Below, piece by piece: positions 8,916 to 53,974 of a stretch of DNA of 64,000 nucleotides; position 1 is the first letter of the stretch; every line of letters starts with the position of its first letter. This stretch comes from a phage, in the NCBI GenBank assembly GCA_024672315.1, contig GCA_024672315.1_4714.1. One strand, written 5' to 3'. The position numbers were made by a program, and so were the translations under genes. The notes under the pieces were generated by a model that was not told the origin of the DNA, made no database searches, and saw nothing but the letters and a program-made list of their open reading frames with translations.

Positions 8916-9153
8916 TTAGCAATGGTTGTTAGTTGCTTCTATTTCGTCAAGATACGGTTCTACGTCATCGCCCTCCACGAATTCGTTGAACCAACAGTCA
9001 ATGGTAGAAATAACCGGTGACTGGTGTTCACATTTCTTAGATACCTTAAAAGGTACGTTATTATCCATCATACCGAGTTCGGGTCGAAAACGCCCGAAAT
9101 GTTTCGCAGTCCAAATGTCTGGGACGATATGGTTGTTCATAGCGTCTCCGTCG
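8916..9153 (-). CDS. RNA polymerase beta'-like subunit (nvRNAP-type), 3' exon encoding the catalytic loop
   Basis: In-frame minus-strand translation from 9153 reads DGDAMNNHIVPDIWTAKHFGRFRPELGMMDNNVPF..., matching the bacterial beta' segment [12 protein letters not shown]...LMMSTNNILSP. The ORF track shows only a 74-aa fragment (8916..9140) because an in-frame stop lies upstream in the intron. Confidence 0.65.
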
Positions 9154-9530
9154 CTGTTTATCGACTATATCTTCATCCTCATTGCGAGGAGTCTCCCGTT
9201 TGGGTCTGTGTTTAACAGAGCCTACTCTACTCGACGTCGCGTCTTTCGATAGTCTGTGAGCACACATCTTAACAAACATTCGTGGATTCCTAAACAGGTG
9301 AATGTTCTTGTTGAGATGCTTCGCTGCGGATTATTCCCGTCCTACCTCTTTTACCGTACCCAGTTCATTACGCTGGCCCTCATCTATGTCACCACGATGA
9401 GTTGGTGTGTAGTCCGATTACAGAAACTTCCCGTCAATTAGAGAGTTTTAACTACGTTCCTGTTACCAGAAACCAGATCCCGACGGTATCAATAAATCAA
9501 CGTAAGTTATTGATTTAATTGAAAAAACTG
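9154..9530 (-). ncRNA. group I self-splicing intron (second intron in the nvRNAP-type beta' gene)
   Basis: Minus-strand core elements in canonical 5'-to-3' order: P-like AATTGACGGGAAG (plus 9427-9439), Q AATCCGCAGCG (9322-9332), R GCTCACAGACTATCG (9247-9261), S AAGATATAGTCGA (9161-9173). Exon nucleotide before the intron is U; intron ends in G at 9154. Only about 9 nt follow S, so no P9 is evident and the exact 3' boundary is uncertain. Confidence 0.6.
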
Positions 9531-9549
9531 AAATCTGCATTATCTAAAT
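9531..9549 (-). CDS. 19-nt micro-exon of the beta'-like gene encoding (Y)LDNADF
   Basis: Minus-strand AT TTA GAT AAT GCA GAT TT; joined to one upstream exon nucleotide (T) and to the downstream exon (C GAC GGA GAC) it gives YLDNADFDGD, restoring the universal NADFDGD Mg-binding motif. Flanked by intron 3' G (9550) and followed by the next intron. Confidence 0.5.
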
Positions 9550-9932
9550 CTTCAGTATGGTTCGCTACGCCATACCCGCACATACGTGCAACTTACGTCT
9601 TTCACGTAAGAAGAGACTATATCTTTCACCCTCAGCATTATCTGGTCGGGGCTCCCATTTCGGCGGTCATCTGACCGGTGGTTTCCCACGCCGCTTGGCC
9701 CTAACGCCCGTAAGCGATAGTCGTTGAGCGCATCTCCGTTCTGGAGACTTCGCTGCGGATTCCCCAATCCTTGCCGCTTTTACCATACCCGAATGATTAG
9801 TTCAGCCCCACGCGCTGTTCCCAGGCGTGGTTGGTGGACAAGGCTCTAAGTAGGTTCCCGCATTAGAGAGTTCCTCGTAACAACATTTCTGCGTTACTGG
9901 GCCTAACGACCCTTTCAAGATCATCACGCTTA
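9550..9932 (-). ncRNA. group I self-splicing intron (first intron in the nvRNAP-type beta' gene)
   Basis: Minus-strand P TAATGCGGGAA (plus 9855-9865), Q AATCCGCAGCG (9751-9761), R GCTCAACGACTATC (9716-9729), S AAGATATAGTC (9615-9625), P9-like hairpin CTTACG-tgaaaga-CGTAAG (9592-9610). The 5' boundary at 9933 is a best guess (exon ends in U, frame gives Tyr when joined to the micro-exon). Confidence 0.65.
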
Positions 9933-11151
9933 ACCCGATGGTGTTATCCTGCGGATCGCGTTTAACCTTGGTGATTTCAAGACATTGGTTACTGCTTCGG
10001 TCAAGTGATGGGTTTCGAACAAAGCCACACACAATCCCATCGAACGGTGTATCAGCAATAAGCTCATCATGCAGCTCGCTCATCATCGGATGATAATTAC
10101 GGACATGTTCCGCAACGAACGCACGTGCTGCTCTTGGTGAATAACCACGATGGAATAACTTGGATTGGATATGTTCTTTATTGGTTAAAGTAAATGGTGC
10201 GTATGGGAAATGCAGATGATAATAACGATGGTTCGCTGTTATCGAACTGATTACGGTACGCGTGGTAAATGGATGTAATGTACCTAATATGTTTTTACGT
10301 GTGATACCTTTCTTCTTACCGATGAACTCATCGAAAATCGCCGCATGGTATTGCAGCAGCTTCAATTGCACTTTCGCCATCCAGTTTTCTTTCTTTCTGG
10401 CGCTCAAAGGTGTTGTTGGATGATAGATACTGTTCAACGTACCGATAGCATCGATCGCACCTTCCATTTTGCTATCCGCATAACGACCGGTTGGCGTATT
10501 CTCGATAACGAACATCATGGCCGCAGGAAAGCTGATATACTGACTGAAGAACTTATCACGATGAATACGGATGAATTCTCGTAGCGTGTCAACTTTCTCC
10601 GTGTTCTTCGGTCCACGTAACGTCGGTCCTTTATACAAGATCTCCATGATGCGATCGAAGTTCTGTATAAAACTATTTACGCCACGTCGTATCCCGAATA
10701 CATCGAATTGCTGCTCCAGATAGTTCTTGAGTTCGATGGGTCGTTTTACATTTGGACGGTAACTGGCATCAATGAGCCACGTCATCGTTTCAAAGCTTTT
10801 GATATTCAACTCGCTTGCCAGCACGAGATGGACCAACGGGTTAATGAACGCATCGATTCCTTCAGGAACGCGCGCCCACACCGTCGAACGAATCTCCTGT
10901 TCTGCTGGGTAGGTTACAACCGTTTTACAGTTTGGACACACCGTGCCGAGCAGCTCACCACGATTGTAGAAACCACAACCACATTGTGGCGTGATATCCA
11001 ACGTATCGCTGGAGTAAACACGGGTGATAAAACTGTTTAATTTCTTCTTCTCTTCGACGACTTTTGTATCGTAATCGTTCAACAAAATCGGCGTAAAAGG
11101 AAGTTCTGCGAGCTGTCTATCGAAACTCACGATATCGAGCATGATGGCCAT
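9933..11151 (-). CDS. RNA polymerase beta'-like subunit (nvRNAP-type, N-terminal part), 5' exon
   Basis: Zn-finger-like CGCG...CPNC near the N-terminus; GKKKGITRKNILGTLHPFTTRTVISS resembles beta' [39 protein letters not shown] resembles NRAPTLHRLGIQAFEP (switch 2). ORF-track runs on to 9802, but the last ~43 codons are judged intron read-through. AGGAGA RBS. Lies immediately downstream of the chimallin candidate, as gp54-gp55 do in phiKZ. Confidence 0.7.
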
Positions 11152-51805: not shown

Positions 51806-51808
51806 GGG

Positions 51809-51988
51809 TTAGGCTCCACGAGGTCCCGTTAAGTTGCGTAATAGGAACGCAACCGTATCGTAACCAATATCGATGTTGAATTTATTTTTACCACTTACCC
51901 AGAAAGCACGCTTCTTGTGCGAGTTGGTAATTTCGTCAATGGCTTCCATGGAATAAAGAACGTTAACCGAGACCGTATCGCCGTCGAA
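51809..51988 (-). CDS. RNA polymerase beta'-like subunit (vRNAP-type), 3' exon encoding the catalytic loop
   Basis: Minus-strand in-frame translation from 51988: FDGDTVSVNVLYSMEAIDEITNSHKK...GPRGA-stop, matching beta' [20 protein letters not shown]; stop lies 3 nt before the beta-like gene's ATG. Not in the ORF track (no start codon). Confidence 0.65.
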   Translation of the reverse strand, partial: FDGDTVSVNVLYSMEAIDEITNSHKKRAFWVSGKNKFNIDIGYDTVAFLLRNLTGPRGA

Positions 51989-52507
51989 CCTTGTCTTCGC
52001 CTCAGGTCGCTACGCTGAGACCGCCTGCGTGGATACGTACATCACAGGCTGCTTGCACTTTCATGCAAGAGGAGACTATATCAAACCGTCAGCTTCACCT
52101 GCTACGGTAACCTACACTTCGAAGACGCTTGTCCTCTACAGGGTGGTAAATCCCTTAGTCGTTGAACCTGCGTTGTTTCACATTCTTGTTTGCAAGAATG
52201 CCGTATTGCTACGCAACAACCAGGCTGCTGATTGCCCATTATCACGCACCTTAGCACCGCTTACGCGGCTTTTCTTTCAGCCTAAGCCTCCGTGGGAGGT
52301 AGTGCATCTCAACTGTTGTTTCCGCCTTTCGGCACCTCATGGGTTGTTGAGCTTTAGGGGTTCCCAGCAATTCGTAGGTTTTTCAAGCACTCCCTTTCGG
52401 GAATACCGGACCAATTCAGTTAGTAAACAACATTATTACCATCCCTCATTCTTAAGGGTTAATTTTTTAAAATGATAAAATTAATGTGTTTTTGGGCTAA
52501 CTCGAAG
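51989..52507 (-). ncRNA. group I self-splicing intron in the vRNAP-type beta' gene
   Basis: Minus-strand P CGAATTGCTGGGAA (plus 52361-52374), Q AATCAGCAGC (52225-52234), R GGTTCAACGACTAA (52155-52168), S GATATAGTC (within 52072-52084), P9-like hairpin CTTGCA-tgaaag-TGCAAG (52052-52069). Exon nucleotide before the intron is U (52508); intron ends in G (51989). Splicing gives ...YLAGLGGD|FDGDTV.... Confidence 0.7.
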
Positions 52508-53974
52508 ATCACCGCCTAAACCGGCGAGGTATGGCGCAGGAACAATAGTCGTTTCTACGAACGAAGCATTAGGTAACCAGTCGGGGTATTCCCATGCGAT
52601 AAATCGTTCATCCGTTATTGGTTCCCAGTTACTATCCAGTTCGGTTTTCGGTTTTGCAGCGACGGTTGTACGCGCGTAACAGGTTAACGGGATAACGGAT
52701 TGCATACCCGATACCGGATAACGTGTTACCATCGCAGCCAGGTTATTCCAGTACTTATATCCGGCGATATAGATAAGCTCGGTGTAAGTAATGGGGTGAA
52801 CATCCGCACCAGGTTTATTCAACATCTCTGGGGGTAATTCACTCATACCACGGAATAACCGAAACGAATCGTTGTTCACATAGACGAGGCAAAGATAACG
52901 TCCATTAACCATGATAGGCTCGTTACGCACACCAGGATCGCTTAAGGTGTTCAATAAACGTTCTATTCCGTCCCATGTTGTAAAGTCATCGATGGTATCT
53001 GGGTCTAACGTGACACGTTCACGTTCCATCGTTTCGATATCGATAAGTTCAACTTCTGTAACATCACGGACAAATATTTCCTGCAAAATCCCCGTACGTA
53101 GCGCATGTTGCGTTACAGGGAGAGCAGCTTTACTCATCTGGTATAACCCTAACTGAACCGCGGTACAGGAAGGCTGGTTAGGCGACCCTAATACCTCCGT
53201 TGTGGGGTTAATTGCCGAAATAACGTTACGGGTTGAGTTCCAAACGCGACGTGAGCCGAACTTACCTTGGAAGATCCCTTTCTTACCCTGGAACATATCC
53301 AACAGTAAAGCGTAGATATCGTTAAATGTTCTCTGTAAGCTCCAACGTTGACCGTCGTAAACGGGATCAGAATAATCTTTTAATCCATCAGGGACGGTGT
53401 TAGAAATTGCAAGGAAACGACGATACAACTCCGTGATTTCTTGCTCGCTTTCATACCCACCTTCTTTTACTTCTATTTCACGTAAGCCTGCAGGCAATAC
53501 CAGTAAGTGACGGGTCATCGCTTTGAACATGTTCTCTTCGACAACTTTAATTCGTAGCTCTCGTTGAGCTGAACCCGTTGAAACGAACTTGATATCAGCG
53601 ACGTGTTGTGCAAAGAACCCGTATCCTGTTTGTCCTGTTAATGCATCAGACGCAACGAAGTCGCGTTGTTCAGGATCCCAACGAGCATACGCCTTTCCCG
53701 ACATGATATCACCATAGAGGTGTTTTAGTCGAATGAGGCGGTCGTAAATGACGGGATGCAGGATTTCAACTTTGCATTCAATCACCGCAAATCGACGGTC
53801 TCGATCTTCACTACCTGCGCTACCAAAGATGGTGTAAGAATAGAAACCATCATCGTGGAAATTACCGGTGCTTGGGTCACGAATGCTCATGCTCGTGATC
53901 TTGGGGAGAAAACGTAACTGCTGTTTATCGAGGTGTAAAATGCTAATGTTAAACGGCTCTCTGACTTTAGCCAT
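52508..53974 (-). CDS. RNA polymerase beta'-like subunit (vRNAP-type, N-terminal part), 5' exon
   Basis: DGFYSYTIFG...RRFAVIECKVEILHPVIY resembles beta' DGLFCARIFG...RRERMGHIELASPTAHIWF but lacks the Zn-finger cysteines; GKKGIFQGKFGSRRVWNSTRNVIS resembles [23 protein letters not shown]. Start set at ATG 53974 with AGAGGAG (ORF-track 54016). ORF-track end 52481 includes 27 nt of intron read-through. Confidence 0.7.

Follow-up and report, generated by a model that had tools for sequence, protein, structure and literature searches.

The 64,000-nucleotide (nt) stretch of phage DNA analysed here, contig GCA_024672315.1_4714.1 of assembly GCA_024672315.1, is referred to below as the window and carries two genes for the N-terminal part of an RNA polymerase (RNAP) beta' subunit, both of which are split by group I introns in the codons of the Mg-binding catalytic loop (NADFDGD). 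The beta' gene of the non-virion RNA polymerase (nvRNAP), a member of the phiKZ gp55 family, holds two introns in tandem, A and B, which are separated by a micro-exon of 13 nt, and the beta' gene of the virion RNA polymerase (vRNAP), of the phiKZ gp180 family, holds a third one, V. These are very probably three independent, endonuclease-less introns that entered by separate invasions, and the pre-mRNAs of both phage polymerases would have to self-splice. The original prediction had placed introns with shared core sequences at an identical active-site position of the two paralogs, either by homing between them or by a single insertion older than their duplication. Both genes are indeed interrupted within a few codons of the DFDGD motif; the positions are not identical. 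The window belongs to a relative of the Escherichia coli jumbo phage Goslar (vB_EcoM_Goslar), to which both ends of the region in question are 95–98% identical, with large length differences (megablast).

A covariance search with Rfam finds three matches to the group I intron family RF00028, all on the minus strand, and no further RF00028 match anywhere in the 64-kb window. The match in the core of intron V (52052–52436) reaches 63.6 bits (E 8.7e-14), above the curated gathering score of 50 bits, while the matches of intron B (9154–9521; 47.8 bits, E 4.7e-9 for the whole window) and intron A (9593–9929; 30.8 bits, E 5.5e-4 for the whole window) each cover model positions 1–253. For all three introns the covariance match is model-wide, and the P7 strands ..CAACGACUA.. 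and ..GAUAUAGUC.. together with P3, P4 and P6 are aligned in A, B and V (cmscan alignments). Three rules served to place the junctions, namely a 5' exon with U as its last base, an intron with G as its last base and restoration of the conserved motif; the terminal base is G in each of the three introns. The resulting gene models are collected in Table 1.

Table 1. Exons and introns of the two beta' genes in the window (ORF, open reading frame; ^, splice site).
Feature	Coordinates	Strand	Length	Remarks
nvRNAP exon 1	9909..11151	-		Ends ..AAA GGG T; ORF 98% identical to Goslar gp247
Intron A	9544..9908	-	365 nt	No ORF; at G^Y (t^at), 8 nt before the DFDGD codons
nvRNAP micro-exon	9531..9543	-	13 nt	AT AAT GCA GAT TT, codons (Y)NAD(F)
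Intron B	9154..9530	-	377 nt	No ORF; splits the DFDGD Phe codon (tt^c)
nvRNAP exon 3	8916..9153	-		C GAC GGA GAC GCT ATG .. stop; in frame once spliced; homologous to Goslar gp185 and phiKZ gp56.1
vRNAP exon 1	52508..54016	-		Ends ..GGC GGT GAT; start codon predicted; ORF homologous to Goslar gp205, PhiPA3 gp212 and phiKZ gp180
Intron V	51989..52507	-	519 nt	No ORF; between Asp and Phe codons (gat^ttc)
vRNAP exon 2	51809..51988	-		TTC GAC GGC GAT ACG .. stop; in frame once spliced

Removal of the introns gives in-frame ORFs that read ..LKGYNADFDGDAMNNH.. (nvRNAP) and ..AGLGGDFDGDTVSVN.. (vRNAP), in which the restored motifs ..KGYNADFDGDAMN.. and ..GLGGDFDGDTVS.. are colinear with intronless homologues. 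The predicted ligated junctions, 9909/9543, 9531/9153 and 52508/51988, read GGGT/ATAATGCAGATTT/CGACGG and GGTGAT/TTCGAC, and the predicted junction peptides of the spliced products are GYNADFDGDAMNNHIVPDIWTAK and ..AGLGGDFDGDTVSVNVLYSMEAIDEITNSHK. Through the nvRNAP junctions the alignment with the intronless proteins 201phi2-1 gp107, PhiPA3 gp054 and Asesino gp40 is ungapped, as is the alignment through the vRNAP junction with the intronless SA002, PhiPA3 gp212 and CR5_208. The Pfam RNA_pol_Rpb1_2 match spans the junctions of the spliced nvRNAP protein, which also matches chain A of PDB 7OGP (E 2e-28), the solved phiKZ nvRNAP, whose 'PHIKZ055 / PHIKZ056.1' fusion reads ..LKAPNADFDGDQLN... The spliced nvRNAP product differs by one residue from that of Goslar, though Goslar has a different set of introns (B and a further intron, C), and the micro-exon is needed to rebuild KGYNADFDGD, which is identical in the Goslar product. 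Goslar is without intron A exactly at the insertion point of the window, and its sequence diverges from the window immediately past GGTGAT, at the junction of intron V. This last junction is fixed by an intronless vRNAP allele in a 95–96% identical IMG/VR genome (L012), which reads GGT GGG GAC TTT GAT GGT GAT.

Other ways of reading the interruptions were considered and rejected. A shift of the B junction by one base (ttc^), which is formally possible in that the intron and the next exon both begin with C, would break the terminal-G rule and the guide pairing described below, and the shifted junction would still not coincide with the V site. An intein or a genuinely split gene is rejected on account of the stop codons, the RNA-family match and the 13-nt exon: the exon 1 ORFs reach stops 35 and 8 codons past their splice sites, that is, inside the inserts, and no protein domain is found in the inserts. 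As both paralogous genes are split at the catalytic loop, an intact DFDGD-bearing subunit would need RNA splicing, a need that we infer from these early stops and from a micro-exon that is not expressible alone. To this extent the split loop supports the original prediction that expression of both polymerases would depend on ribozyme splicing. Each ribozyme would employ guanosine as its cofactor and carry a terminal G; its internal guide (P1) would hold the 5' exon, and P10 the 3' exon.

The exons match the internal guides of introns A and B, and for B the two vary together between the window and Goslar. In intron A, the exon end GGGU^ pairs with the guide GCCC, and the exon reads GGGT in every allele that bears A and GGTT or GGAT in the alleles without it. 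The orthologues of intron A (n=6) have two compensatory pairs and several G-U intermediates, with the changes located in P2 and in the tail hairpin. The guide of intron B, CCGUCG-GGAUCUG, pairs both with CGACGG of the 3' exon, forming a P10 of 6 base pairs, and with CAGAUUU of the 5' exon, forming a P1 of 7 base pairs. Goslar has CCGACUU in the exon before intron B and GAGUCGG in the guide, which amounts to two compensatory double changes, and the cross-combinations of exon and guide from the two phages mismatch.

With positions counted from the DFDGD motif, whose first Asp codon begins at 0, intron A lies at -8 in phase 1 (ggg t^at), intron B at +5 in phase 2 (gat tt^c) and intron V at +3 in phase 0 (gat^ttc). 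The insertion sites differ in nucleotide and in codon phase on the ungapped DFDGD alignment, a difference that the original prediction itself had named as counting against it. The nvRNAP and vRNAP beta' proteins are very distant paralogs, and the BLASTP alignment between them is confined to 18 ungapped residues at and near DFDGD. An alignment of five intron types with MAFFT is too noisy for homology, and pairwise blastn, global alignment and shuffles were used instead. By blastn, A and B are 62.5% identical over 160 nt of the core, A and V are 71% identical over 69 nt of a 3' tail with two hairpins, a GUAGCGA loop and GAAGA, and B and V have no similarity match. Global identities are 52.6% for A and B, 55.8% for A and V and 50.5% for B and V, and shuffled sequences reach 51.3% on average and 53.7% at most; judged by these alignments, the global similarity of the three introns is at shuffle level and only local segments of core and tail match. 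The claim of shared core sequences holds only weakly.

The introns of the window are no more alike than group I introns of unrelated phages, and V stands nearer to introns of other phages. Outside the Goslar-like phages, its best matches are found in Proteus phage 7, Pseudoalteromonas phage H101, Staphylococcus phages and Vibrio phages, and not in A or B. Orthologues at the same site are far closer to each other, with identities of 97% for A, 97–98% for B and 86% for V. Intron A is 97% identical in the relative L011 and 93–99% identical in four metagenome contigs, and intron B is 96–98% identical to the Goslar intron.

A survey of relatives for intronless alleles, which had been proposed with the original prediction, finds them in abundance: tblastn gives an uninterrupted match in 131 of the 222 phage records for nvRNAP and in 225 of the 261 for vRNAP, so intronless alleles are the rule. 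Among Goslar-like genomes, five combinations of nvRNAP introns are found, namely A+B, B+C, A+B+C, D+C and A alone. The window has A and B, and its vRNAP gene has V without an endonuclease gene. Goslar has B, with an HNH_3/NUMOD1 gene, and C at +18, and its copy of V has an HNH gene. L011, L019, L020 and L023 have A, B and C with two 13-nt micro-exons, and the contig of L011 has V without an endonuclease gene (read in L014, on the same contig). L010 has D at 0 and C, with an exon of 18 nt, on the contig that also holds the intronless vRNAP allele L012; L022 has D in a truncated locus, and L021 has A alone, with an I-HmuI-like ORF of 323 residues. Thus A is absent from Goslar and L010, B from L010 and L021, C from L021 and V from L012. 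The nvRNAP sites of Goslar-like phages are -8, 0, +5 and +18, which together with -3 of phiKZ makes five sites in about 27 nt. Other chimallivirus nvRNAP introns lie at 0 in Proteus phage 7 and at +3 in Vibrio phage pir03.

Intron C follows DGDA (gct^atg) in Goslar (L001 3259–3613), in L011 (6011–6365) and in several relatives, and is unannotated; the window has an empty C site, between 9141 and 9140. Rfam misses the Goslar copy at E<=0.01, and P7 of intron C is GAAUAC/GUAUUC instead of GACUA/UAGUC; its acceptance as an intron is based on junction logic, on core motifs read by eye and on its relative D. A cytosine is the last base of the 5' exon for intron C of L010 (GCC^; region L010 5252–5601 and 5620–5976) and for the nvRNAP intron of Vibrio phage pir03 (GAC^; L015 1357–2679). 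The cleavage-site pair there would be C-G and not the near-universal U-G wobble, and the motif is not rebuilt by any other placement of the junction.

This distribution would be accounted for if an extremely conserved target had been invaded several times separately, by means of I-HmuI-like nicking HNH endonucleases that persist in the A, B and V copies of relatives. Such HNH_3/NUMOD1 or I-HmuI-like genes are Goslar gp186 and gp206, phiKZ gp56 and gp179 and the ORF of L021, and the one in Goslar intron B sits in a 3' hairpin. The ORFs that overlap introns A, B and V of the window have no endonuclease domain or Pfam match. The window copies would have lost their endonuclease genes or never had them, and would persist by vertical descent and recombination. 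Intron V is the counterpart of the phiKZ gp180/gp179 intron, and A and B are specific to Goslar-like phages. The 5' part of V, from the splice site to P2 (window 52437–52507; L002 2093–3660; L014 5510–5547), is unrelated in the three phages. It measures 38 nt in L014, 95 nt in the window and, in Goslar, where it includes the HNH gene, about 1.57 kb; it is the variable slot that houses the endonuclease gene.

An alternative for the neighbouring nvRNAP sites, which is unlikely, is that they were made by reverse splicing, that is, by hopping at the RNA level via the short internal guide, and not by endonuclease homing. The related introns C (+18) and D (0) match over 350 nt with an identity of about 71%, are each preceded by ..ACGCT^ and have the same short guide GGC; most intron copies are without an endonuclease gene, and guide and exon pair over few bases in A, C, D and V. 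Arguing the other way are the HNH genes in A (L021), in B (Goslar) and in V (Goslar and phiKZ), as well as synonymous exon differences beside occupied sites, as co-conversion predicts. Reverse splicing may still contribute to the spread between neighbouring sites, as far as the sequences of C and D can tell. Synonymous changes are clustered at the vRNAP junction, where L012 (5501–5515) reads GGG GAC TTT GAT and the intron-bearing alleles (window 52508–52514, 51983–51988) read GGT GAT^TTC GAC. They include C instead of T at the base that is required as U for splicing, and look like a signature of co-conversion or of target immunity.

Far less probable than reverse splicing is homing of one and the same intron between the two beta' genes of this genome into an identical codon position. 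It could draw on the 15-nt target GAT TTC GAC GGN GAY, which is nearly identical in the two genes, on the common 3'-terminal module of A and V and on the nvRNAP intron of Vibrio phage pir03, which occupies +3, the site of the vRNAP introns. In the window it is already contradicted by the different sites (-8 and +5 against +3) and phases, and further by the undetectable similarity of B and V, the global identity of A and V (55.8%, where shuffles reach at most 53.4%) and the closeness of V to introns of other phages. The two paralog introns of phiKZ (L017 2251–2622, L018 10169–10540) share 72% identity over 330 nt, which rises to 96.7% in the last 60 nt and suggests, in contrast to the window, recombination or transfer between them. 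Exchange between the paralog introns is plausible in phiKZ and not in the window.

Several points weigh against three introns that all splice as proposed. Introns A and B score below the gathering threshold of RF00028, and their minimum free energy (MFE) z-scores, -1.9 for A and -1.2 for B against -4.1 for V, are weak and not separable from those of shuffles, so they were not used as evidence of structure. For intron V, P1 consists of GAU^/GUC plus 1–3 further pairs found by eye, at its shortest GAU/GUC plus one pair, and a search for a longer P1 found none beyond these; the junction of V is consequently based on the intronless allele and on homology, and not on P1. By ONT-cappable-seq, spliced reads were not detected for the phiKZ introns (PMC10914365). 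Splicing in the window is itself deduced from sequence, and the lack of endonuclease genes in the window copies may be due to loss, the likely reason, or to their never having been present.

Some of these points could be pressed into the view that the introns are decayed and no longer splice, the genes being pseudogenes or expressed as separate fragments: A and B are under the gathering score, endonuclease genes are missing and one study saw no splicing reads for phiKZ. This view is highly improbable, even more so than homing between the paralogs. Both polymerases are core, essential chimallivirus functions, the exons are strictly conserved and give an identical KGYNADFDGDAMN from five intron configurations, the 13-nt exon is not translatable alone, and the covariation of exons and guides is maintained. 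Moreover, phiKZ gp55 has been purified, running at 56 kDa (PMC4666361), and solved as a protein of spliced length. A single ancestral intron, present before the duplication that gave the vRNAP and nvRNAP beta' genes and inherited in both, would explain why the interruptions of the two paralogs, in phiKZ as in Goslar-like phages, lie close to one and the same motif, and it can be practically dismissed, since most chimallivirus genomes have uninterrupted genes, presence and absence vary among genomes that are >95% identical, the insertion positions differ, orthologous introns are 86–98% identical while only 18 residues of the paralogs can be aligned, and intronless alleles in L012 (vRNAP) and in Goslar and L021 (nvRNAP sites A, B and C) refute it.

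Wherever A is followed by B, or B by C, the micro-exon between them measures exactly 13 nt (window 9531–9543; L011 5609–5621 and 5998–6010), sites A, B and C being spaced 13 + 13 nt. In the micro-exon of the window, the first 6 nt (AUAAUG) pair with the start of intron A, as P10, and the last 7 nt (CAGAUUU) pair with the guide of intron B, as P1. In the second micro-exon, P10 of intron B takes 6 nt and 7 nt remain for P1 of intron C, of which only GCU/GGC is confirmed as pairing. A length of 13 nt would then be the minimal spacing that permits independent recognition of the exon by the flanking ribozymes. It can be proposed, with some hesitation, that the nvRNAP NADFDGD stretch of Goslar-like phages is a saturable landing pad, where up to three ribozymes are stacked 13 nt apart at a spacing given by a 6-nt P10 and a 7-nt P1, the minimum exon. 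The reshuffled intron sets among genomes >95% identical would point to intron warfare or turnover that is still under way in the catalytic centre of an essential enzyme. The setting of such a landing pad may be the nucleus-forming phages, in which splicing is uncoupled from translation.

The nearest known systems are the RNAP introns of phiKZ, predicted by Mesyanzhinov 2002 as that work is cited in PMC10914365 and PMC11512511, which treat them as known. In phiKZ, gp180 is split at GAT^TTC (D^FDGD) by a group I intron that bears gp179 (92 bits), and gp55 is split at AAT^GCT (N^ADFDGD, -3) by a group I intron that bears gp56 (75.6 bits). The gp180/gp179 intron lies in the same gene family and at the same insertion nucleotide as intron V, and the architecture of the 3' tail is common to both; window V differs in having no endonuclease gene. 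In Goslar, V contains an HNH gene with an annotated similarity to phiKZ ORF179. The endonuclease region provides the sole blastn match of this copy to that of phiKZ, the similarity of the ribozymes being low. The phiKZ gp55/gp56/gp56.1 arrangement belongs to the same gene family as the nvRNAP gene of the window, its intron adjoins DFDGD and its downstream exon is the counterpart of window exon 3. It has one intron, with an HNH/NUMOD1 gene, where the window has two at other sites and no endonuclease gene; V only, and neither A nor B, shares its insertion nucleotide with a phiKZ beta' intron. In Goslar (NC_048170, with annotated Intron_gpI features), B and V are orthologous to those of the window (96.8% and 86% identical), and the differences are the absence of A, the extra intron C and the endonuclease genes in B and V.

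Short exons between tandem group I introns have precedents. Orf142 of phage Twort has three group I introns, an exon of 23 nt and exon skipping (Landthaler & Shub 1999, as summarised in PMC10136302), and an exon of 34 nt lies between tandem group I introns in the Coxiella 23S rRNA. The Twort gene resembles the window nvRNAP gene in having several group I introns in one phage gene and a very short internal exon between two ribozymes. The window differs from it in that its exon is 13 nt and encodes catalytic-loop codons, the guides of A and B differ, and skipping would shift the frame.

The intron of PhiPA3 gp210 lies in the vRNAP beta gene and confers a competitive advantage in phage-phage competition (Birkholz 2024, PMC11620839). 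Like the window introns, it is a group I intron that interrupts a chimallivirus RNAP gene at conserved Asp codons; it comes with a nicking HNH endonuclease of the I-HmuI-like type, which the window introns lack. It was rejected as their counterpart, as it lies in another subunit (beta, gp178 family) and not in beta'. The window homologue of that gene, which encodes a vRNAP beta subunit of 1448 residues (47459–51805, minus strand), is uninterrupted, unlike that of PhiPA3, and the vRNAP beta' gene lies upstream of it.

The nvRNAP beta' gene is placed beside the gene of chimallin (11244–13139, minus strand), which is the protein of the nuclear shell. On the plus strand, 54103–60885 encodes a virion or tail-fibre protein of 2260 residues with a lysozyme-like C-terminus, a homologue of Goslar gp204. 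Rfam also gives weak matches to the S15 leader (54951–55056, plus strand; 25.5 bits, E 0.09) and to mir-320 (14495–14548, minus strand; 21.7 bits, E 0.34), which are far under the gathering scores and most likely due to chance.

Introns in both beta' genes are already documented for phiKZ, and the window is a further example: the phenomenon is known from the gp180/gp179 site, which V occupies, from the phiKZ gp55 intron and from the gp55–gp56.1 fusion of PDB 7OGP. What is new is the unannotated intron A, the 13-nt micro-exons and the highly polymorphic hotspot of multiple sites. Current GenBank records contain annotation errors, listing the exons as separate 'hypothetical proteins' and missing introns A and C. 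The hotspot among nearly identical Goslar-like phages is a natural system for the study of intron gain, loss and competition, comparable with PhiPA3 gp210, and bears on the limits of exon length between tandem group I introns. If the proposed splicing is true, nvRNAP would require two splicing events in succession, one on either side of a 13-nt exon. With the production of both phage polymerases dependent on ribozyme activity, so would be the entire infection programme of a nucleus-forming phage.

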